A DNA stretch of 64,000 bases. Source: Mobula hypostoma. Taxonomy: Eukaryota. Positions 25,036 to 55,517 of the stretch are shown piece by piece. Below the pieces are notes generated by a model. It had not been told where the DNA came from. It made no database searches and saw nothing but the letters and a program-made list of their open reading frames with translations. The translations under genes were made by a program, and so were the position numbers. Within the stretch, counting starts at the first letter, position 1. Each line of letters starts with the position of its first letter. The stretch spans positions 35,280,001 through 35,344,000 of the forward strand of contig NC_086097.1 in assembly GCF_963921235.1 (NCBI RefSeq), written 5' to 3'.

Positions 25036-26603
25036 GCAGCTCTTCCTACAGAGTTTAGAGTAAAATGCGCTGAAATGATAATTTATTTCTAAATAATCAG
25101 TTGTCTTATCACCATTAGCTTTGCACATTTCTTTAATCTGCTGTTTATCTATAAAGGTTTTAATCTGATCAGCCAATAATTTACCTGTTTTGAATATAAA
25201 ATTGTCTTTTTATCTTTTAGGAGTTGGGTTTCAATTGGATAAGTTAAAAGGAGATCATATTTCATTTTAGTTTCAACACGTCTTTTATATAAGGCAGGTT
25301 CTGGCGCCAAGGCATACTCTTGGTCTAACTGTTTCAGCCGATTAGCTAAATCACTTCTCTCTTTATTAGCTTTTTTCTTAATACTTGCAGTATAAGAAAT
25401 AATTTGTCCTCTAATATATGCCTTAAAGGCATCCCACCTGATAAGACTAGAAATCTCCTCTAATGTATTAACTTTAAAAAAAAAGTAATTTGACTCTCCA
25501 TAAACTTTAAAAAATCTTTATCAGATAACAAAGTTAGATTAAATCACCAAAATCTATTTGTTTGAAGAAGACCAGGGAGACTTAAAGATAGAAACACAGG
25601 AGCATGATCTGAAACAGCAATCTCTTTATATTCACAGGATCGAACTGATGAAATCATTTAGCTATCAATAAAAAAAATCAATCCTTGAATGTGTATGATG
25701 GACATGAGAGAAAAATGAATATTCCTTGTCTACTGAATGAAAAAAAACACCAAGCATCAACAATACCACATTTCATTAAAAAAGATTAATAAACACAGCT
25801 GATTTATTTGGTATCATTGGTTTAGAAGATGAACGATCTAAAACTGGATCTAAGCAACAATTAAAGTCTCCACCCATCACCAATGAGTACAGACTTAGAT
25901 CTGGCAAAAATGAAAAAAAAACAATCAAAGAAACCTGGGTCATCTATATTTGGAGCATACGCATTGGCAAATATCATTAATTTGTTGTTTAGTTTCCCTG
26001 ATGCTATAACAAAACTCCCATTAGTATCAGAAATTACTTTATGTCGAACAAAGGGAACTTTATTATCTTTAAGGATCGAAACTCCTCTAGCTTTGGCTTG
26101 AAATGAGGAATGGAAATCAGATTTTCTCCATCGATTGAAAAGGCATGAATTGTCACACTTACGTACATGGGTTTCTTGAAGAAAAACAATTGGTACCTTA
26201 AGTTTTTTAATATAGGCAAAAATCATATCTCTTTTCACAGGGTGATTTAGCCCTTTCCAGTGCGTGAGTGGGCCAGTGAAGGAGTGAAGCTTTGAGGCTT
26301 TGAGTCGAGAGATTCTGGCAGTTTTGGCAGTTGGTCTGTGCAATCAAGTCAATCAAGATTTGAATAGATCAGCAGAAAGCCGTTGATTAGACAATCAAGA
26401 TTTGAATAGCTCAGACTCAGCAGAAAGCAGCTGATTGGGCAGTCGAGGTCAGGTGACCAAACATTTTGAAAAGCTCAAACAGATAAATAGAGGGATAGCT
26501 CAAGCGAAGCGGCCAGTGCGTAAGTGGGATAGTGAAGGAGTGGAGCTTTGAGGCTTTGACGAGAAGAGGTGGAGGACAAGCTAGCTCGCAGTTAGTTTTT
26601 ACA

Positions 26604-39284: not shown

Positions 39285-39660
39285 AAGAAAATGTGCTGGA
39301 AATGCTTAGCAGTACAGGCAGCATATGAGGAAAGAGAAATTAAATGAAAATTTTAGATCAGTGACCTTACACTTGCTCTTCACAAAAGCTGCCTGACCTA
39401 TTGAGCATCTGCAGAATTCTGTTTTTACTTCAGATTTCCAGCATCCACAATTTTTGCTTTTGTTATTTCTTTTATAATGCAGAATGTCGTAGGGGATATG
39501 GTGAAAAGAATTCTAGTTACTCTGACCATAAAATCACAAGGCAATGCCAACATTGGAAGTCTGAAATAAAACAGAGAATGCTGGTCTGTGGTGAGAGAAA
39601 CGGGTGTAGTATTTTACTTTGATATTCTGATGAAAGTCATTACCTTTCATTCTGTCTCCA
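39285..39660. repeat. Short degraded PLE pseudo-LTR-end relics (39285-39450 palindromic; 39550-39660)
   Basis: gctggaaatgcttagcagtacaggcagc inverted against gctgcctgacctattgagcatctgcag; cagatttccagcatc terminus as in the PLE at 23655-23700. Confidence 0.6.
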
Positions 39661-40372
39661 AGAGAAAAAAATTAAACTCATTTTTCTAATTAAATTTTTT
39701 CTGCATGATTGTTCCAAAAGGTAATGTAAAATAGTTGAATTTTGTAGTGAGAGATACCTGCCCAAGAGAATTAAATTGTATCCACTTTTTTTCAGCATAA
39801 TGTTGGGTAAAGAGTTCTCACCTCCAAACTGATAAACTCTTTTAAGCTACAATATATTACTGGTAACATTTACAACCAACTGTATAATTTATTTGATGTA
39901 TTAAAGGCTAATATAAATCTTAGCACAATGCAAATGAGTGCACTAAGTAAAATGGTTTACAATTTGTCAAAGCAAAACAGGTTAGTACCTCCATAATATG
40001 ACCATTAGGCAAATTGAACTAGACAAGAGGAGCACATGGATTTTGAGTGAGAGGCTGTTTCAGATAATTAACAAGCGCCATTGGGGCAGGATAGCTTGTG
40101 ACTTAATTAAACAAAGTAACATTTAGTATGTGTGAATTCTGATGAAGTGTGAACTGATCATTTATTCAGGTCAGTTAAGTAGTTTTGAGGAAGTTGACAA
40201 GATATCTTGCATGGAAATAATGAACTTGATCCAAAAAAAAAAGCAGCTCTAAAAATCATTTATGGTTTCCAAGGTAACATTGGCTTTAAATTATAATGGT
40301 TATCTCCATATTAAGATAGAACTGTTTTTAATGTTACTTTATACTTCATGTTTTAGATTAATGAACCTGTCA

Positions 40373-40860
40373 CAACACATTGAGCACATCTACAAGGTGT
40401 GTTGCCACAAGAAAGCAGCCTTCACCATTGAGAACCCCACCATCCAGTCCATACTCTCTTCTTACTGCTACCTTTGGGCAAGAGGTAGAGGAGCCTCAGG
40501 TCCCATACCACCAGGTTCAGGAACGGCTGTTACCTTTCAACCAGTGTGGATAGCTTCACTCATTTTAACACTAAACTGATCACTGAACACAACCTATGGA
40601 CTCACTTTCAAGGCCTCTACAAATCATGTTCTCAGTATTATTTATTTACTTTATTATTATTATTATTATTATTACTTGTTTTTTGTATTTGGGCTGTTTG
40701 TCTTCTTTTGCACTTTAGTTGTTTATCAGACTTTGTAGTAGTTATTCATTGATTCTGTTATATTTCCTTGTTCTACCGTGAATGTTCGAAAAAAGTAAAT
40801 CTCAGGGTAGTATATGATGACATATACATACTTTGATATTAAATTCATTTTAAACTTTGA
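40373..40860 (+). mobile_element. Rex1/Babar LINE 3' fragment
   Basis: KKAAFTI...HPVHTLFLLLPLGKR*RSLRSHTTRFRN; tail tactttgatattaaattcattttaaactttga; same family as 16069-16545. Confidence 0.8.
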
Positions 40861-41461
40861 ATGCCTGTAAGAAACAACCTGTTTATGATTATAAGAATGC
40901 ATGTTAGATCCAGGCTGATTGGTTAAAAAAATAGAAAAGTACTTTGCTATTATTTAGAGACTTTTTCTTGGAGATGGCCTGCTTTCTGCTGAGATAGAAA
41001 CTGATCCTTTGTTAGGGAAGGGTTTGTTACTAGGTCCTGGATAAAAAATGGGTGCAGGTTGATGGAAGCAGGCAGTTTAAATGGTTTGGCGGAGATTAGA
41101 TGGGCCAAAGGGCCTGTTTCCGTGCTGTACTTTCTTATGACTATGGTTTATGGTTAATTAGTTAAGGGGTAGGGACAGTTTATGACTTACATTCTGCCAT
41201 CCCCTCTCTCCTTGGTCTCCTTGTGAAAGGTAATTCTTAAGAGAATGCAAGGGGATTCTTGTTGCTGAGAGACATTGTTCTGAAATTAATCGATTGCTGA
41301 ATTTTAAAATTCTGGAAGTACGTAAAAGATCAGATGTAAATAGTGCAGAAAAATAATGTTTCATTAGAGCTCATCAGCTCTGTTACAAACTGGAATGGGT
41401 GGTTATCTCAAGTCGCTGAATTCACTTGTAAGGGTGGTAACGTGCCAAGTTGGAGGATGAG

Positions 41462-42033
41462 CAATGTTCCCTCTAAGGTGTGCATGTGTACTCACTCACA
41501 CATCTTTTGCTACTAGCGCACAAAGGAATTTAAACTGCACACAAAAGGTTGTCACCCTCTACCTCGTTGGCATATTAAGTATATTTCACAATTGTACACA
41601 ATCATATTTCCTTTTCCATTTTCTGGGGCGGACAGTGTTGACAACATGGATTTTGCTTTGATTTGTCTGCAGATTTTGGAACTGGCTTATTTATGCTGTT
41701 CTTAATTGAAGAAATTATTGATTTACTATGTCAAACTCAAAAGAAGCAAAAAGGCGCAAAAGAACTGCTAGTTTATTTAAAGTGGAATGGCTTAATGACC
41801 AGTTCAAACAATTTTATAACATGTGAGAAGATTGATATTATTACATGCTGTTGTATAGAAAATGAGGAATAAGACTCATTGGTGTGTATTATTATATTTC
41901 TTTTAAACAATGAACAACAAACTGGATTTGGTAGTTTATTATCCTTAGAATAGCTTCAGGTTTACTTCCACAAAAAATTGCACAGCTCAAGATTTTTGCA
42001 CACACCTGTCATTACAAATTAGAGGGAGCATTG
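41462..42033. mobile_element. Non-autonomous hAT MITE
   Basis: TIRs caatgttccctctaa / ttagagggagcattg; perfect 8-bp TSD aggatgag (41454-41461, 42034-42041). Confidence 0.92.
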
Positions 42034-42194
42034 AGGATGAGGTATTGCTGTTCATATTTGCATTGTGCTTTGTTGGAATACCATAAGACATTCTCTCCAC
42101 AGATGCTGCCAGTCTTTGTCTCACTGTGTACATAAGTGTATACTGATGAATTGAAACTTGTTACATACACCTGTTAGGGTGCATTCTCTGGATA

Positions 42195-42532
42195 CCTTAT
42201 AAGGTAACCGTAACTTTCAGCCAGGAGCAGTTGTCATCAGGTGGTTCCCAACCTTCACAGAGTGTTTCAACCCCTAATCATGACACTCTCCAGTTGGTGG
42301 GCCGGCAGCGGTGGCCAAATCACTGCCCATCTGCTCCTGGCTTCTAGCTTCCCTCCTCTGGCTTATTCCAAATGCAACAAGAGGCTCGTTCTGCCTCTTT
42401 CCCCATCCTACCAGCTGCTGTTTTTTGCTCCTTTCAGTCAGGCCCAGATCTAACAACAACCGCCATGCTGATTTGGCTGGGAAACCTCTGTAGCCGATCT
42501 CCACAGGGAACAACCATGCCTGCCACCCCTTG
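42195..42532 (-). mobile_element. 3' fragment of a HERO-clade (R2-group, restriction-like endonuclease) non-LTR retrotransposon
   Basis: Minus strand GWQAWLFPVEIGYRGFPAKSAWRLLLDLGL then, after a frameshift, AAGRMGKEAERASCCIWNKPEE; fits the HERO C-terminal GWxxxxxPVEVGCRGF...AERASxWLW pattern. Confidence 0.78.
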
Positions 42533-45500
42533 AGGTGTCTGAAATATCTTGAACTTTCTAAGACATAAAACAGGCAGTGTATCACAAATTGGCTTTTGCA
42601 CTATGTTATCCATCTGTGATACCACCTCAGTTTTCCTCTCTCCAGTAACACACCCCTGACCTGCTGCACATGACCTACAATTCCATTCCATACTTTTCAC
42701 TTTTTATTGGCACGGCCCGTAATGAATCAACAAACGCACTTTTTATTGATATTTATTTATATTCTCATTCTTTTCCTTCCTTCATCTTATAGCTTTTGTT
42801 GAATTTCTTTCTAAGAGCTTACATTAACATGACCTGCACAATGTACTCTTTGGCAACACCTTAGCCTTGTGTTTTGCTTGTCTTCGCCGTCCTTCTCCAA
42901 CCTTCAGACGACTTTTTTCTCTCTTCCCCAATTCTGACCGGGAATGTGAACTGATTCTCTATCCACAGGTACTGCCGGATCTGCTGAGTGTCTGCAGCAT
43001 TTCAACTTTTATTTCAGGTATCCAGCTTCTACAGTTTTATAATTTTCATTTATCACTCACCGTATCTTGCTCTGCATTTTAAGTGTTCTGTATTTGGATA
43101 AAGTCCTCAGTTGCAGTGAGGCTTGAGGCTGGTGTGAGTATCCATTCTTCATTACAGCCAGCAGAAGTTTAAAATCTGATTATTTTATGTAAATATTCAC
43201 ATTTTCTGCTGAGAATAATCTTTTGCTGCTTTGAGAATATTACTTCCATAAATCTAGCCATTACCCACTCCTAAAATTGTGGATTTCACACTTCTGAAGT
43301 GACTAAGAAGCTCTTAAGCTGTATGCTTGATGTTAATCTGTCAATAACGAGCACAATTATAGGGCTACCAAATCTCAGCCACAAATAAGATTTATCTTTT
43401 GCCTAAGGTTATGGTATTGCCCAAACGTATTGAGAAAGTCACAGGGTAGACTGAGCCTCTTTACAGAGTTGCTGAAATTAACAATAGTAAGTCAAGGCAT
43501 TACAAAAGCAAATGTAATTTTGTAGGCAAGTCAAATTCTATGCCAGTTGCCCTTGAAGTGCAAGTGAAGTTAGAGGATGATCAGTACATTGTAGAAAGGT
43601 ACAGGAAGTCACAATGCTGTTCTGTAAACAGAGAATTTCAGTTCAGAGTTTTATTTCAATTGCGAAGATTTATGAGGAAGAAACTGGAGTCAAGGGCCGG
43701 AGTTATTTTATATCTGATGGTTGTGAGATAAATGTTTGCCATCTCAACCCAATTGTTGACTGGCATAAATGTGTGATGTAATACTAGTTCTGTTATAATG
43801 CTCTTTATGTCAGGGAAACCAGCCCCAGGATGCCCTATAAAAGACTTGACTCAGTAATCCAATTGGGATGCAATAATAATTACAAAACTATTGACAGCAC
43901 CAAGGTTGGTACTAACCAGCCTATCCTCTGGGCAACAGAGCAACATGGATTAACTTGTTCATAAATCAGTCTGTGCCCTTAACTGTGTACTTTTCCTTAT
44001 TGCTCAGTGGTACGTGATTGTCTAGATCATTAAAGCTCATAGAGCCTATTGCCTGTCTTCAAGCAGTCCCTGCTGTTTCAGAAGTGGGCAAAAGTCAGGG
44101 ATTTAAAGCAATTGGTAGAAGGACTTGAGAGGAGATGAAGAAAATCTTTTCATCTGGAAAGTGTTATGTGTCAGGAATGCTCTATAGTATAGTAGTGGCG
44201 GGAACCCTTATCACATTAAAACAGTGCTCAGATCTGTACTGGAAGAACCATACGACCTCAATGGTTCCTCTCTGTCTAGCTTCATTCACCTAATGGTTAT
44301 CTAACAGCACTTTTAAGTAGTTGCACTCCAGTAAAGTACGTAATGGCTTGTGTGTGAAATGGAAAAGATGTGCTCTTAAGACAGAAGCAAGCTGTTGGGT
44401 AAGAGCAAGGGTAGGATCAAACTGGATTTCCCCTTGCTTCTCTTTAATCAAGTAACCTACAGACTGACCTGCTATTCAATAAAGAGTTGCCATTTGATAG
44501 AGCTACCTTGGGATATCTCCTGGTGTGTTCATCCTTTCAAAGGAAATCGGCATGCAGCTACCTGCTAACAGGTTTAAAAGCCTTTCAGTGCATTTGTAGG
44601 TTATTACTTCTAGTTACTTTGTGCAAATGACAGTTATTATATTGTCACATTAATTCAGTTACTAATGTATATCTGACTATAATTAGCTTCAGAAATGTAT
44701 GTGGTTTGTAAGCAGAAAGAATATAATGCCACTCATAAAGGAACAAGTATGTAAAATGGCCCAGTGTCTGGAAGAAGTTCATAATACTGACTGGAGAATT
44801 CTTGATTTTGCCTATTGTCTGATAAATGAGACAATACAGAAACTAATAAAAGCTTCAGTTGTATTTCAATATTTTTGGGACATAAAAACCTATAACTAGA
44901 GCATTTGGGTACTTGAATTGCATTAGCATTATACGTAATAGTGTTGATTGTAAAAGGTTAATATTCGCTTTAAGGCTGCTGCCTCTTTGAATTCAGTAAC
45001 AGGTGGTTGACTGCTGTCTGTGTCACATGCAATGTTTGTCGAAGCTTATGAGGTCAGTACTGTGGAGCCTTTTAATAAAAGCAATCATTTTTATTGGAGC
45101 TCTTGAAAACTGATGAGTTCCACTCTTTGCACTGTAGACGCACATAGAACCCAGATACTACATTTATGAGAGGGTGAATGCGGAACTGTTGTAATTTATG
45201 TTAAATGAGTTAATGTCGGGTGAAATAGCAAAGGAAGGAATTTCAGATGAATGGATGTCCTGCGGTGTAACTTCAGGGCCTAGCTAATTCAACTTATATT
45301 TTCTGCTTGCCTTCCCTGATTTTCTTTTGAATGAATTCAGGTTGACAGGTGGAAAATTGCTTAAGGATGTGCTCGGCCTAAATTTTTCTGGTGGGTTTCC
45401 ATAAGAAGCTGGAGAGACCACAATAAGTAATTTCCATGGTCAAGATTCACAACAAATGCTGTCTACACCACTACTTGCCAACTCCCCTATTGAGAAATCA

Positions 45501-45630
45501 AGAAAAAAAAGGTCAAGCTCTTGCCATTTAAAAGCACCTTAACTTCTTAGATAGATAGTGGAGCCGGACTTTTCAAACTCTACAAAACACAGTTGCAGTC
45601 AGAATGTTTTGTCGCTGTTGTATGTGATTT

Positions 45631-46740
45631 AGCAGAGAATGATGGAAACTTTCATCAGGCAGGGAATATCTGTGGGGAGAGATACAGAGTTAATGTTTTG
45701 GTGAATCACCTTTCATCAGAATTGGAAAAGGTTTGATAGGGAATAAGTTTTGAAAAGATAACTTTATTGACTCGCAATTAGCTCTGTTTCTCTCTCTACC
45801 CATGTTTCCTGACCTGATCCATATTTTCTGTATTTTCTGCTTTTATTTCAGATTTCCAGTATCCTTAAGAAACAACTCTTAAGATGTTGAGAATGGGGTG
45901 GATAGTGAGGGAGAGATCAAAATGAAAGGTCTGCAATAGGTAAAGGCTGAGAAGGTTAAATGAGAAAGAAATGGTGTTTCAAGAAAAATATAAAAGATAA
46001 GTCAAGACATATTGTAAGTAAGGATAGCAGATTTCTATCTGAAATTGTTGATCTCAATCTAAAGTCCTGAAGGCTCTAAAGTTCTGGTTAAAGCTGAAAA
46101 TTAGAAAAAAAAATCATCTTCTGGGAGTTTTGTATTTTGACAAGCAGCATGATTGACCATGTGAATACAAGCACATTTAGCCCCAGGACATGGCACCAGT
46201 ATTAGAAAGGATTATACACAAGAATATCTGCAGATGCTGGAAATCCAGAGTAACACACACAAAATGCTAGAGGAACTCAGCAGGTCAAGCAGTATCTATG
46301 GAGAGCAATAAAAAAATCGATATTTCAGACAAGATCCTCCATCAGGACTGGAATGGAAAGGGGAAGAAGCTAAGGGCTTAGAAAGGATTAAATTACTTCA
46401 CTAGTCAAGAAAAAGTTCTCTTACCATACTTTCCTGAACTGCCCTATTATCGCCATTTTTTGTTTCCTCTTCACGTACGTCTCCACCATTAACAACAGGA
46501 CACTTCATTGGGACCAATTCTACTTTAATTTCCACAGTCAACATCTGCTCCTGCTCTCATATTCTTGCCCACACGGATATTTTGTTCTTCTCAAATTGGT
46601 CTTAATGCTAAAGTGTCTTGAACATCTTCAGAACATTTCTTCAGAGTCTATGCCAACCCATTCTTCTGCAGAGCAAGCAAGCACATGAAGGAAAATTTCA
46701 ACATCTGGAGGAGAATAGACATCACCGTATGCAAATTTCA
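45631..46740. repeat. Cluster of degraded PLE relics (45631-45864 palindromic; 46217-46370 minus pLTR end with decayed hammerhead at 46316-46349; possible GIY-YIG relic 46480-46740)
   Basis: ctgcagatgctggaaatccagagtaacacacacaaaatgctagaggaactcagcagg parallels 23660-23725; minus strand agtc-ctgatgg-aggatcttgtct-gaaa-tatc. Confidence 0.65.
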
Positions 46741-46759
46741 ATATATGCAGGTGGGCTGA

Positions 46760-47755
46760 GGGGATTTACCAGGATGCTGCCTGGATTACAGAAATTATCT
46801 TTAATAAGGAAAGTTTATGAGAGCTCGGGCTTTTCTTCTTGGAACGAAGGAGGATGAGAGGCAACTTGATTGAGGAGCATATGAGAAGATGTCTGAGGAA
46901 GGTGTTTTACACAGAGAGTGTAAAATGCCTGAATACACTGCTGGGGTGGTGGTTAAGCTTATACATTAGGGACATAAGATGAACGAGAAATGGAGAGTTA
47001 TGGGCTGTGTAGGAGGGGAGGATTAGATTGGTTGTGGAGTAGGTTTAAAGTCGGCAAAACATCTCCTAGAACAGAACACAGAGCAGTGCAGCACAGTATG
47101 GCTAAAGAGACCATGCGTGCTGTACTGTTCTGTGTCCTAATGTCAGCGCCCATGCATGCTGTACTGTTCTGTGTCTTAATTTCAGGGACAAAAGGAGAAA
47201 TGTAAATGTAATTTATAGGACACTGCAGGAATATCCTTAGGGGATTTCTTGAGGCATCCCTTGCAACATGTCAAAATTTGAGAAGAGGATTGGGAATGTT
47301 TTCTGTGACTGTTCTTGTAGTGCTTGATGCAGGTTATACAGTATCTTTGTTTACCATTGACCATTTAGAGATTTCTTCATGGTGAGCCATGAATATTCCA
47401 GTTCAGTTTGGTCAGACAAAAAACTCCTCAACAATTTATCAGAGAAGAAATGTGGTCCTGGAAATGTTTAGGATGTTTGGATTTCCCTGCTTCCACATAC
47501 TCTCACTATCATAGAAACATAGAAAACTTACAGCACAATACAGGCCCTTTGGCCCACAAAGCTGTACCGAACATGTCCTTACCTGAGAACTACCTAGGCT
47601 TGCACATAGCCCTCTATTTTTCTAAGCTTCATGTATCCATCCAGGAGTCTCTTAAAAGACCCTATTAATTCCGTCTCCACCACCACCAGCAGCCCATTCC
47701 ACGCACTCACCACTCTCTGTGTAAAATAACTTACCCCTGACATCTCCTCTGTACT
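46760..47755. mobile_element. Two CR1 3' fragments (about 46760-47180 plus; 47510-47755 minus)
   Basis: FTRMLPGL motif on plus; catagaaacatagaaaac tail of a minus copy matching the one at 58839. Confidence 0.75.
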
Positions 47756-47894
47756 ATCATCAAGATCAATCTGTTTCTTCCTTTGGTAGCTTTAAGTGAT
47801 GTTCACGTTGCAGCTTGAAGCTAACAAATATGCGGTATTGTACAGAACAATCTTTCGTAGGGCATCAGAGTTCTCAGCATTAGAGAATCTTGCT

Positions 47895-49968
47895 AAGGTT
47901 TATTATTGTCACACCTATGGAGGTACAGCGAAAAGCTTTCTTCTATGTGCCGTCCCTACAGATTATTGCATTACAGCTGTGCATTGAGGTAGAAAAAGGG
48001 AAACAATAGGCAATCGTAGCATAAAGTGCTACAGATACAGAGATGGTGCAGTAGTCAATAAAGTGCAAGGCCAGATGAGGTATAGTGCCTGTAAAAAGTA
48101 TTCACATCCCTTGGAAATTTTCATGTTTTATTGTTTTACAACTTAAAAACTTTTATTGTTTATTATTGATCACTAAAACTTTTATTGTTTTACTAGTGAT
48201 CTAAATTAATTACATTTATAAAGCACAAAATAATTGTTTGCATAAAGTCTTCAAGTCAGTATTTAATAGATGCACCTTTGGCAGCAATTACGGCCTTGAG
48301 TCTGTGTGGCTAGGTTTCTATCAGCTTTGCACATCTATACACTACAACTTTTCTCCATTCCTCTTTACAAATCTGCTCAAGCTCTGTCAGATTGCATGAG
48401 GAACGTGAGTGAATAACCCTTTTCAAGTCCAGCCACAAATTCTCAGTTGGATTGAGGTCTCCAGGACATTAACTTTGTTGTTTTTAAGCCATTCCTGTGT
48501 AGCTTTAGCTTTATGTTTGGGGTCATTGTCTTGCTGGAAAACAAATTTTCTCCCAGGTCATAGTACTCTTGCAGACTGCATCAGGTTTTCCTCCAGGACT
48601 TCCTTGTATTTTGCTGCATTAATTTTCCCTCTACCTTCACAAGCCTTCCAGGGCCTGCTGCAGTGAAACATCCCCCCAGCATGATGCAACCACCATCATG
48701 CTTCGTGGTAGGGATTGTGTTTTTTTCAGCTGATGTGTGGTGTTTGCTTTATGCCAAACGTAACATTTAGTCTGATGGCCAAAAAGCTCAATTTTGGTTT
48801 CATCAGACCAGAACCACCTTCTAGCTGACTTCAGAGTCTCCCACATGCATTCTGGCAAATGCTCGTTGAGATTTCATGTGAGTTTTTTTCCAACAGTGGC
48901 TTTCTCTTTGCCACTCTCCCATAAAGCTGTGACTGGTGAAGCACCCAGGTAACAGTTGTTGTATGCACAGTCTCTCCCATCACAGCCACTGAAGCTTGTA
49001 ATTACTCCAGGGTTGCCATGGGTTTCTTAGTGGTATCCCTCACTAATCCCTTTCTTGCATGGTCACTCAATTTTATAGGACAGCCTGCTCTAGGCAGATT
49101 TACAACTGTGCTATGTTCTTTCCATGTCTTGGTGATTGAGTTAACTGTACATGGAGGGATATTCAGTGACTTGAAGATTTTCGTGTATCCATCTGCTGAC
49201 GTGCTTTTCAGCAACTTTTTCACAGAGTTGCTTGGAGTGTTCTTTTGCCTTTGTGGTGTGATTTTTGACAGGGTACTGACTCACCAACAGTTGGATCTTC
49301 CAGATACATGTGTAATTTTACTACAATCGATTGAAACACCTCAACTGCACACGGTGATCTCCATTTAACTAATTATGTGATTTCTCCAAAACCAATTGGC
49401 TTCACCAGTGATAATTTGGTGTGTCATACTAAAAGGGGTGAATACTTAGCAATCAATTATTTTGTGTTTTATATTTGTAGTTAATCTAGATCACTTTATA
49501 GAGATCTGTTTTCACGTTGACACTTGAGTATTTTTCTGTTGATCAGTGTCAAAAACAGCCAAATTAAATCCACTGTGATTCAATGTTGGAAAACAATAAA
49601 AAATGAAAACTTCCAAGGGGGTGGGGGGGTGAATATTTTTTATGGACTCTGTTGATTGTGAAGTCGAGTCTATCTTATTGTACTAGGGAACCGTTCAATC
49701 ACCTTATAACAGTGGGACAGAAGCTGAGCTTGAGTCTGGAGATGTGTGCCTTCAGGCTTTAGTATTTCCTACCTATTGGGAGGAGGGAGAAGAATGAAGT
49801 CTGTGGTGGGTGGATCCATTGATTATGTTGGTTGCTTTACTGAAGCAGTGAGAAATGTAGATTGGGTCCATGGAGGGGAGACTTCTTTTCATGATGTGCG
49901 GAGCTTTGTCCACAACTCCTGGCAGTTTCTTGTGGTCTTGGGCAAGCAGTTGCTCTACCAAGCCATGG
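47895..49968 (-). mobile_element. Rex1/Babar 3' fragment split by the Tc1 (parts 47895-48082 and 49652-49968)
   Basis: Plus-strand tttattattgtcaca tail; flanks join as gaggta/gattgtgaagtc; minus strand gives a KATNII...LPIGGNTKA..HI variant of the Rex1 C-terminus. Confidence 0.6.
48083..49651 (-). mobile_element. Tc1-like DNA transposon with long IR/DR-type TIRs and decayed transposase
   Basis: TIRs tagtgcctgtaaaaagtattcac...ttggaaattttcatgttttattgtttt / aaaacaataaaaaatgaaaacttccaa...gtgaatattttttat; inner repeat ggggtgaatactt near 49435; paired-like HTH (KIFKSLNIP...NLPRAGCP), WSDETKIELFG and further DDE remnants. Confidence 0.92.
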
Positions 49969-52987: not shown

Positions 52988-55517
52988 TAGTGATGTTGGG
53001 GATGGCATTAAACAGGAAATTAGAAATGTGTGCAATAAAGGAACAGCAGTTATAATGGGTGACTTCAATCTACATATAGATTGGGTGACCAAATTGGTAA
53101 GGGTGCTGAGGAAGAGGATTTCTTGGAATGTATGCTGGACAGTTTTCTGAACCAACATGTCGAGGAACCAACTAGGGAGCAGGCCATTCTGGACTGGGTT
53201 TTGAGCAACGAGGAAGGGTTAATTAGCGATCTTGTCGTGCGAGGCCCCTTGGGTAAGAGTGACCATAATACGGTGGAATTCTTCATTAAGATGGAGAGTG
53301 ATATAGTTAATTCAGAAACAAAGTTTCTGAACTGAAAGAAGGGTAACTTTGAAGGTATGAGACGTGAATTAGCTAAGATAGACTGGAAAATGATACTTAA
53401 AGGGTTGACGGTGGATATGCAATGGCACGCATTTAAAGATCGTATGGATGAAGTACAACAATTGTTCATCCCAGTTTGGCAAAAGAATAAACCAGGGAAG
53501 GTAGTGCACCCGTGGCTGACGAGGGAAATTAGGGATAGTATCAATTCCAAAGAAGAAACATACAAATTAGCCAGAAAAAGTGGCACACCTGAGGACTGGG
53601 AGAAATTCAGAGTCCAGCAGAGGAGGACAAAGGGCTTAATTAGGAGAGGGAAAAAAGATTATGAGAGAAAGCTAGCAGGGAACAAAAAAACTGACTGTAA
53701 AAGCTCTTATAGATATGTGAAAAGAAAAAGATTGGTTGAGACAAATGTAGGTCCCTTACAGTCAGAAACAGGTGAATTGATCATGGGGAACAAAGACATG
53801 GCAGACCAATTGAATAACTACTTGGTTCTGTCTTCACTGAGGAGGACATAAATAATCTTCCGGAAATAGTAGGGGACCGAGGGTCTAGTGAGATGGAGGA
53901 ACTGAGGGAAATACATGTCAGTAGGGAAGTGGTGTTAGGTAAATTGAAGGGATTAAAGGCAGATAAATCTCCAGGGCTAGATGGTCTGCATCCCAGAGTG
54001 CTTAAGGAAGTAGCCCAAGAAATAGTGGATGCATTAGTGATAATTTTTCAAAACTCTTTAGATTCTGGATTAGTTCCTGAGGGTTGGAGGGTGGCTAATG
54101 TAACCCCACTTTTTAAAAAAGGAGGGAGAGAGAAACTGGGGAATTATAGACCGGTAAGCCTGACATCGGTGGTGGGGAAAATGCTAGAGTCAGTTATCAA
54201 AGATGTGATAACAGCACATTTGGAAAGCAGTGAAATCATCGGACAAAGTCAGCATGGATTTGTGAAAGGAAAATCATGTCTGACGAATCTCATAGAATTT
54301 TTTGAGGATGTAACTAGTAGCGTGGATAGGGGAGAACCAATGGATGTGGTATATTTGGATTTTCAAAAGGCTTTTGACAAGATCCCACACAGGAGATTAG
54401 TGTGCAAACTTAAAGCACATGGTATTGGGGGTATGGTATTGATGTGGATAGAGAATTGGTAGGCAGACAGGAAGCAAAGAGTGGGAATAAATGGGACCTT
54501 TTCAGAATGGCAGGCAGTGACTAGTGGGGTACTGCAAGGCTCAGTGCTGGGACCCCAGTTGCTTACGATATATATTAATAACTTAGATGAGGGAATTAAA
54601 TGCAGCATCTCCAAGTGTGCGGATGACACGAAGCTGGGTGTCAGTGTTAGCTGTGAGGAGGATGCTAAGAGGATGCAGGGTGACTTGCATAGGTTAGGTA
54701 AGTGGGCAAATTCATGGCAGATGCAATTTAATGTGGATAAATGTGAGGTTATCCACTTTAGTGGCAAGAACAGGGAAACAGATTATTATCTGAATGGTGG
54801 CCGATTAGGAAAAGGGGAGATGCAACGAGACCTGGGTGTCATTGTACACCAGTCATTGAAAGTGGGCATGCAGGTACAGCAGGCGGTGAAAAAGGCGAAT
54901 GGTATGCTGGCATTCATCGCAAGAGGATTCGAGTACTGGTGAGACCACACCTGGAGTATTGTGTGCAGTTTTGGTCCCCTAATCTGAGGAAAGACATTCT
55001 TGCCGTGGAGGGGTTACAAAGAAGATTCACCAGATTGATTCCTGGGATGGCAGGACTTTCATATGATGAAAGACTGCATCGTCTAGGCTTATACTGTCTG
55101 GAATTTAGAAGATTGAGAGGGGATCTGATTGAAACGTATAAAATTCTAAAGGGATTGGACAGGCTAGATGCAGGAAGATTGTCCTCGATGTTGGGGAAGT
55201 CCAGAACGAGGGGTCACAGTTTAAGGATAAAGGGGAAGCCTTTTAGGACCGAGATTAGGAAAAACTTCTTCACACAGAGAGTGGTGAATCTGTGGAATTC
55301 TCTGCCACAGGAAACAGTTGAGGCCAGTTCATTGGCTATATTTAAGAGGGAGTTAGATTTGGCCCTTATGGCTAAAGGGATCAGGGGGTATGGAGAGAAG
55401 GCAGGTACAGGGTTCTGAGTTGGATGATCAGCCATGATCATACTGAATGGTGGTGCAGGCTCGAAGGGCCGAATGGGCTATTCCTGCACCTATTTTCTAT
55501 GTTTCTATGTTTCTATG
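52988..55517 (+). mobile_element. 5'-truncated CR1 LINE, same subfamily as 29958-32711
   Basis: Near-identical APE-RT peptides (QIGKGAEEEDFLECM, QEIVDALVIIFQNS); small deletion near 54937; (tttctatg)n tail. Confidence 0.95.

Follow-up and report, generated by a model that had tools for sequence, protein, structure and literature searches.

Non-circularly permuted hammerhead ribozymes were described by Eckert et al. in 2023, and their type-SGC representatives (HRIMA-1) self-cleave in vitro (PMC10085705). In the accessible sections of that paper, the blocks that make up the ribozyme are assumed to be uninterruptible, six block-order types are given, and retrotransposons are named only in the reference list. 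On the side of the mobile elements, the available part of the relevant source describes HERO as having a single ORF, in which a reverse transcriptase (RT) is followed by a Cys-His motif and a restriction-like endonuclease, with no Cys-His motif before the RT (PMC2790886).

The locus described here touches on both subjects. The window (the whole 64,000-nt stretch of Mobula hypostoma DNA that was analysed) holds, on the minus strand from 42342 to 42219, one decayed copy of an RNA domain of roughly 125 nt. The motif is real and not a product of chance. From comparison of sequences, we regard it as probable that this HERO-like domain is a rewired hammerhead ribozyme module, present clade-wide at the ORF end and in the 3' UTR, which would fold, cut and trim the transcripts of its element. 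The original prediction, made from the letters of the window, had placed a permuted hammerhead-like RNA at 42229..42289. Its core blocks do lie inside those limits, but the 5' strand of stem II, helix b, the hairpin P0 and the closing helix e were missed, so that the domain proves to be considerably longer.

The host element and its copy in the window

The repeat that carries the motif belongs to an abundant LINE family with a reverse transcriptase, a CCHC finger and a restriction-like endonuclease. A first look at the window's genome (3.48 Gb) gave 1440 candidates, of which 40 were scored and 39 are other copies at 91-93% identity. All 39 match from query base 169/170 on, with most extending further upstream, so the copy in the window, which lies on the minus strand, is 5'-truncated at 42532; its 3' end, at about 42157/42156, was set from 30 genomic copies. 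In longer copies, one ORF encodes the RT, then a C-X2-C-X7-H-X4-C finger, and then a C-terminus of the PD...E restriction-like endonuclease type. The family's true stop codon is the UGA at 42322-42320 on the minus strand. An apparent ORF in the window that reaches 42274 was rejected as a frameshift artefact of this copy. The motif starts 30 nt 3' of the family stop, which agrees with the earlier statement that it lies just past the ORF end of a HERO-type element.

Relatives of the C-terminal 260 residues were found in teleosts, amphioxus and bivalves, and Pfam gave RVT_1 and zf-RVT, with nothing N-terminal, in all four full-length relatives searched. The HERO domain layout is matched both by copies of the window's family and by the full-length relatives. 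We refer to the element as a HERO-like LINE; this name is provisional and set by domain layout, and no source calls these proteins HERO.

The elements can stand head to tail. Of the 36 metagenome loci whose flank extends for 700 nt or more, 11 (listed in Table 1) show the next ORF starting on the same strand, 116-693 nt past the motif, and in the window's genome a precise junction with the family's 5' end is seen for 4 of 44 copies (L005, L007, L112 and L126). Template jumping by reverse transcriptases is part of the general background here. We also see a second 3' module a few bases before the element end (window 42165-42181, minus strand), consisting of a hairpin GCAGN...NCUGU and then AU. 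A hairpin followed by GUAU is present in 36 of 59 related loci, and in L035-L092 it lies 15-100 nt past the motif; this terminal hairpin likely serves the RT for priming or recognition. In place of poly(A), the copies end in short, variable repeats of the AACAAG/ACAAGT type (3' ends of L002-L030 and L112-L140). At the other end of the element, the 5' UTR consists of short hairpins in an array; their loops are of the GGAAAGAC type, and UGAC comes after each hairpin. The array is conserved across families, being detected by a crude pattern in 12 of 54 loci.

Table 1 Features of the HERO-like copy and its RNA domain (window coordinates unless loci are named)
Feature	Position	Strand	Remarks
Decayed 3' end of ORF (restriction-like endonuclease region)	42343..42532	-	Frameshift and in-frame stops in window copy
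e, closing helix, 5' strand	42328..42342	-	Last ORF codons; pairs with e'; 15/15 pairs change on both sides
P0, hairpin between e and a	42304..42327	-	Contains family stop UGA; covariation
a, stem II 5' strand (10.x)	42299..42303	-	First base is the G10.1 equivalent; pairs with 42273-42269
b, fourth helix, 5' strand	42293..42297	-	Pairs with 42252-42248; U42292-G42253 adds a sixth, wobble pair
c, stem III strand 16.x	42283..42289	-	Ends in U16.1; 7 bp in window
H17 (C)	42282	-	Core-rule position; predicted cut 42282/42281
d, stem I strand 1.x	42276..42281	-	4/6 pairs in window, 6/6 in family majority
a', stem II 3' strand (11.x)	42269..42273	-	Last base is the C11.1 position (U in window)
GAAA	42265..42268	-	G12 A13 A14 A15.1
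c', stem III strand 15.x	42259..42265	-	
j2, bulged strand (GUGAA) of III/b internal loop	42254..42258	-	Columns U 43, G 56, A 56 of 68
b', fourth helix, 3' strand	42248..42253	-	In linker from stem III to stem I
d', stem I strand 2.x	42241..42246	-	
CUGAUGA	42234..42240	-	C3 U4 G5 A6 N7 G8 A9
e', closing helix, 3' strand	42219..42233	-	Begins immediately after A9
Rest of 3' UTR	42156..42218	-	Terminal hairpin 42181-42178/42171-42168, UAU, short AACAAG-like tail
Metagenome loci in tandem	L034, L035, L036, L038, L039, L056, L060, L068, L069, L081, L090		
5' UTR hairpin array	L005:1879-1990 and similar; downstream flanks of L034-L039, L068, L069, L081, L090, L104		

Core and helices of the domain across families

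The letters given in the original prediction for the minus strand of 42289..42229 are exact and include all hammerhead core parts, with a GUC at 42284-42282 ahead of the GAAA and CUGAUGA strings. Stem III is the perfect 7-bp helix that had been drawn, and stem I pairs at four of six positions with two A-C mismatches. These had been interpreted as decayed G-C pairs, and G is indeed the base in 28/30 and 27/30 aligned genomic copies. The family majority of the 30 copies has a perfect 6-bp stem I and differs from the window copy at five places inside the motif; two of these differences mend stem I, one gives C before GAA, and one abolishes the stem II originally proposed. The base preceding GAA is C in 24/30 copies, restoring C11.1, and U in the window copy. 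Helix e has all of its 15 bp intact in the family majority and one mismatch in the window copy (T>A at 42232).

Metagenome contigs were scanned with an alignment of the C-terminal domain, which matched 599 stretches, 390 of them encoding a relative; the best 80 of the 390, at 35-80% protein identity, form the survey set. In most loci, CUGANGA (N being any base) is found some 80-200 nt past the ORF match, and the stems preceding it vary in sequence between loci yet stay complementary. A strict string parser could read only 51/80 loci, because single mismatches and short flanks broke the matching, and was later replaced by a covariance model search. As circularity was a concern, the model encodes helices b and III only, leaving out stems I and II. 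It places the motif after the ORF, on the correct strand and in the correct place, in 73 of the best 80 loci, with 63 full-length matches and 10 clipped by a contig end. With filters off, no motif was found in L077, L095, L096, L106 or L107, that is, in 5 of the 78 loci having downstream sequence, L059 and L067 being the two that have none. In the window, only 42220-42312 matches the model. The string GAAAC followed after 20-35 bases by CTGANGA occurs four times in the window against 0.68 expected; the other three occurrences, on the plus strand at 25611-25651, 39597-39633 and 53555-53595, are probably chance, since none fits the covariance model. Rfam 15 gave no hammerhead or other fitting family for window 40000-48000 at E up to 10, or for 20 loci at E up to 1. 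An isrG match in L068 was discarded as spurious, as it sits on a tandem repeat.

The resulting alignment holds 68 sequences in 46 groups at 80% identity, 17 of which were unused in model building and show the same core pattern. Hammerhead numbering and the core rules are applied here as generally understood. We see near-complete retention of the first core string (C3 64/68, U4 66/68, G5 67/68, A6 67/68, G8 66/68 and A9 66/68), whereas N7 is free (U 41, A 13, C 12, G 1). The second string is equally constant (G12 65/68, A13 68/68, A14 68/68, A15.1 67/68), as is U16.1 (67/68), and the A15.1-U16.1 pair is kept as U-A in 64 of 66 distinct rows. The H17 column, with C 20, U 26, A 21 and G 1, follows the rule of any base but G. 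The G10.1 equivalent is G in 62/68 sequences, position 11.1 is C in 56/68 and U in 8/68, and among 64 cells their pair is GC in 49 and GU in 8. CUGANGA stands directly 3' of the stem I 3' strand with no spacer, GAA stands between the stem II 3' strand and stem III, as the hammerhead requires, and all three stems abut the core strings without spacer. Two related copies (L056, motif 2160-2251, and L060, 2210-2301) have U for C at position 3, giving UUGAAGA, and in L041 and L098 A replaces G12; these copies could be family-level variants or could reflect shared decay.

Over all helices, 89.3% of cells in the 68-sequence alignment are paired, versus 62.8% in shuffles and 36-45% in slid controls, and 382 cells carry double changes versus 98. 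These are counts per sequence and not per evolutionary event; the cells are not independent, since the alignment includes many dead copies and some closely related groups. A plain MAFFT alignment of 51 loci and two copies from the window's genome gave a similar picture, with 88.5% paired versus 62.6% in shuffles and 37-46% in slid controls. Stem I is 92.0% paired across families and covaries in 6/6 pairs, and stem II (a:a') is 90.8% paired over the 68 sequences with compensatory changes in 4/5 pairs, although both are absent from the model. Stem III is 83.4% paired, with 6/7 pairs covarying. Compensatory changes are thus found in 16/18 pairs of stems I-III, and in 10/11 when stems I and II are taken alone. 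Helix b is 95.6% paired, or 91.5% on the plain MAFFT alignment. The linker from stem I to stem II (d to a') is short, at 2-8 nt.

Helix e has a mean contiguous length of 9.3 bp over 49 loci, versus 5.7 in shuffles; in 32/62 loci the exact zero-linker register gives 6 bp or more, and in these loci every other register gives a shorter helix. P0 has at least 5 bp and adjoins strand a in 52/62 loci, with no spacer to either e or a, and its outer five pairs are 85.4% paired and covarying. Together, helix e and P0 are 70.5% paired, versus 52.6%, the slid controls giving 33-47%. The stop codon falls within P0 in 21/65 loci and, counted from the locus table, within the e/P0 zone in 43/65. Overall, the evidence shows that both the hammerhead core and five helices of this RNA are under selection. 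The original prediction had called for a check of covariation across families, and the core and stems I and III are indeed conserved and covarying.

Its version of stem II fared differently. That helix, AACU/GGUU with one extra base after CUGAUGA, can be written on the window copy, yet it is lost in the family majority, and across the 68 sequences it is 51.8% paired, versus 31-51% in slid controls. An in-register variant of the same helix was likewise rejected on the 68 sequences. Depending on the register, pairing of the post-A9 strand with 11.x is 46.5-51.8%, which is no better than slid controls. A9 is not directly joined to the 5' strand of stem II; the post-A9 strand pairs with the ORF end instead.

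An internal loop separates stem III from helix b (42254-42259 and 42289-42291, minus strand; alignment columns 28-30 and 65-71), with a three-base bulge and then G-A opposite G-A. GA stands opposite GA in 36/67 sequences and the bulged strand reads N-N-U-G-A in most, with another loop in some families. A K-turn joins two helices by a bulge of three bases and then tandem G-A/A-G. The loop in our domain, where G42290 and A42289 face j2, may be K-turn-like, and with a kink of this sort helix b could be bent back in the direction of stems I and II.

Predicted self-cleavage and competing explanations

In the wiring that emerges, the parts follow each other from 5' to 3' as e, P0, a, b, c, H17, d, a short linker, a', GAA, c', the bulged loop, b', d', CUGANGA and e'. 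Stems I, II and III meet the invariant core in canonical register. Cross-connections run between their distal ends (I to II, II to III, and III to I), and the two long crossing strands pair as helix b. Because e' starts immediately after A9, and P0 sits without spacer between e and a, it is at the A9/G10.1 bond that the chain passes into and out of the core, by way of a perfect four-way junction. This wiring supports the original claim that the strand order lies outside hammerhead types I, II and III.

The domain most likely adopts the hammerhead active site and would cut after C42282, an expectation that follows from its agreement with the core rules and, as far as the available text goes, from the activity of type-SGC (PMC10085705). 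The cut is probably reversible, since after cutting the halves would stay joined by e, a, b and III (~30 bp), so that a resealable nick seems likelier than release of a fragment. Its likeliest use would be in cutting read-through or head-to-tail tandem transcripts into defined element RNAs; we favour this use because head-to-tail arrays are common, and a similar role has been proposed for other retroelement ribozymes. As helix e uses the last codons of the ORF, a terminating ribosome must unwind it, and this may couple folding to translation.

All genomic copies run unbroken across the predicted cut site. None of 29 further copies starts at the first base past the cut; two copies begin 6-7 nt upstream of it, both on one contig and about 40 kb apart. 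This argues that the RT template is uncut or resealed RNA, and rarely or never cut RNA; if the domain cuts, the RNAs that serve as template would need to have escaped cutting or been rejoined. Logan contigs (assembled public runs) cross the cut site in three of four runs examined. In run X4, one high-depth Logan contig begins at the first base past the cut (L004:1753-1872), although contig ends are no evidence in this respect.

Two structural points bear on the proposal. No hammerhead described so far is known to have its backbone broken between A9 and G10.1, which counts against it, as do the silence of the Rfam hammerhead models and the five loci in which no motif was found, and there is a geometric doubt as to whether helix b can span the distance between the stem III end and those of stems I and II. 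A doubt about the reach of the fourth helix is also raised for type-SGC in the text available to us, and the K-turn-like loop may offer an answer to this geometric puzzle (PMC10085705).

The continuity of genomic copies can also be understood if the hammerhead fold serves as a rigid pseudoknotted platform, bound near the stop codon by the newly made protein for cis preference or template choice, with cutting suppressed or undone by ligation. According to the part of the source available, a related R2 protein is said to bind pseudoknotted RNA (PMC12222951). We nevertheless find this account unlikely: copies that all span the cut, with 0/29 starting there, a domain overlapping the last codons and stop in 43/65 loci, where the nascent protein would meet it, and a cage-like wiring that would keep products together are all in its favour, but binding needs neither the exact catalytic bases nor the exclusion of G17 (1/68). 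An active fold with a 2'-OH at H17 would moreover be expected to cut. The type-SGC relatives do so, by the account in the accessible text (PMC10085705).

It is very improbable that the domain is a conserved, structured 3' UTR element lacking a hammerhead core, with its likeness to GAA and CUGANGA a coincidence. Around 13 core positions follow the hammerhead rule one for one, N7 is free, H17 is not G, the A15.1-U16.1 and G10.1-C11.1 pairs are kept, and three helices abut the core strings with no spacer. Against this, a coincidence could appeal to the silence of the Rfam hammerhead models, to the A9/G10.1 link being broken by a junction, and to a stem II that is not in the type-SGC position. A chance look-alike in a single window, for which one might cite how common the core strings alone are there, is refuted by the single fit to the model in the window and by 73/80 loci with covariation, and its probability is close to nil.

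A bolder version of the ribozyme proposal, which we think quite improbable, is that an autonomous LINE clade spanning molluscs to vertebrates carries a working hammerhead with a seventh wiring, in which block C is split. With a closing helix built from the last codons and the stop-codon hairpin, it would be switched by the terminating ribosome. By cutting and rejoining reversibly, the element would obtain unit-length, perhaps circular RNA from tandem or read-through transcripts, in a retrozyme-like cycle of an element with an RT of its own. If true, such a cycle would also explain the frequent head-to-tail arrays.

If the domain is a rewired ribozyme, it would extend the natural hammerhead wirings beyond the six block orders thought possible, and would show that the core tolerates a helical junction in place of the A9-G10.1 link. 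Within the literature searched, it would also be the first hammerhead associated with an autonomous LINE that has a restriction-like endonuclease. Descriptors that keep block C whole, as well as the Rfam models, miss the domain in ribozyme searches. Host transcripts that include one of the thousands of copies present in large animal genomes could be cut as well. There is also a puzzle, in that the cut would detach the ORF from the 3' end, where reverse transcription is primed: why would an element cut its own template? The position of the domain suggests ideas on template choice, tandem-array processing and coupling to translation termination.

Comparison with known ribozymes and structured RNAs

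The mammalian Clec2 3' UTR contains a discontinuous hammerhead, which is an ordinary type III ribozyme with a very long insertion. It shares with our domain a location in a 3' UTR and an unusual spacing of parts, but it is not rewired.

Other self-cleaving or structured RNAs of retroelements are nearer in context, and the statements that follow reflect the accessible portions of the sources. The hammerheads of Penelope-like elements (PLEs) and animal retrozymes likewise place the core in a retroelement, often in tandem, where cutting would yield unit RNAs (PMC4209133, PMC7229834). They are of type I/III, with unpermuted three-way junctions, in PLEs or non-autonomous repeats, whereas the HERO-like domain is pseudoknotted and lies at the stop codon of an autonomous, endonuclease-bearing LINE. 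R2 and other LINEs carry HDV-like ribozymes at their 5' ends, which are likewise self-cleaving RNAs built into a LINE of the R2 group and trim co-transcripts (PMC3774820). However, they belong to another class and act at the 5' junction, where the cut frees the element; a cut in the HERO-like domain would instead separate the ORF from the 3' end. The protein-bound pseudoknotted RNA of the R2 3' UTR is similarly a structured pseudoknot in a related LINE, but no hammerhead core is mentioned in the portion available, and protein binding is reported for R2 while it is hypothetical for the HERO-like domain (PMC12222951).

The closest match is type-SGC, again taken from the accessible text and the supplement alignment on which our mapping was checked (PMC10085705). 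Both RNAs have the conserved core in the order cleavage site, GAAA, CUGAnGA, and both have a short linker from stem I to stem II. Both also have a fourth helix, formed by the strand before the stem I 3' strand together with the one following the stem II 5' strand, to which stem III is linked at its distal end. They differ in where the stem II 5' strand and the strand of the fourth helix lie: past CUGAnGA in type-SGC, but upstream of the cleavage-site block in the HERO-like domain, where CUGANGA is followed by the closing helix to the ORF end, with a hairpin between. Type-SGC RNAs come from metatranscriptomes, near hairpin ribozymes, and their cleavage has been demonstrated, whereas the HERO-like domain belongs to a LINE and its cleavage is predicted from sequence.

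The relationship can be stated simply. Judged by its sequence, the HERO-like domain is type-SGC closed at the CUGAnGA end, circularly permuted, and opened between A9 and G10.1, that is, inside block C. The integrity of that block in type-SGC, with the stem II 5' strand after CUGAnGA, is not kept here; the wiring falls outside the six types of the 2023 paper because it is opened inside a block that the available text assumes to be uninterruptible (PMC10085705). In full-text searches covering few of the subscription journals, no paper turned up that connects a hammerhead with HERO or with other restriction-like-endonuclease LINEs. The original prediction had likewise known of no description for HERO, and both the wiring and the host element do appear to be new; the idea of a permuted topology is not, since the S-G-C block order had already been published in 2023 (PMC10085705).
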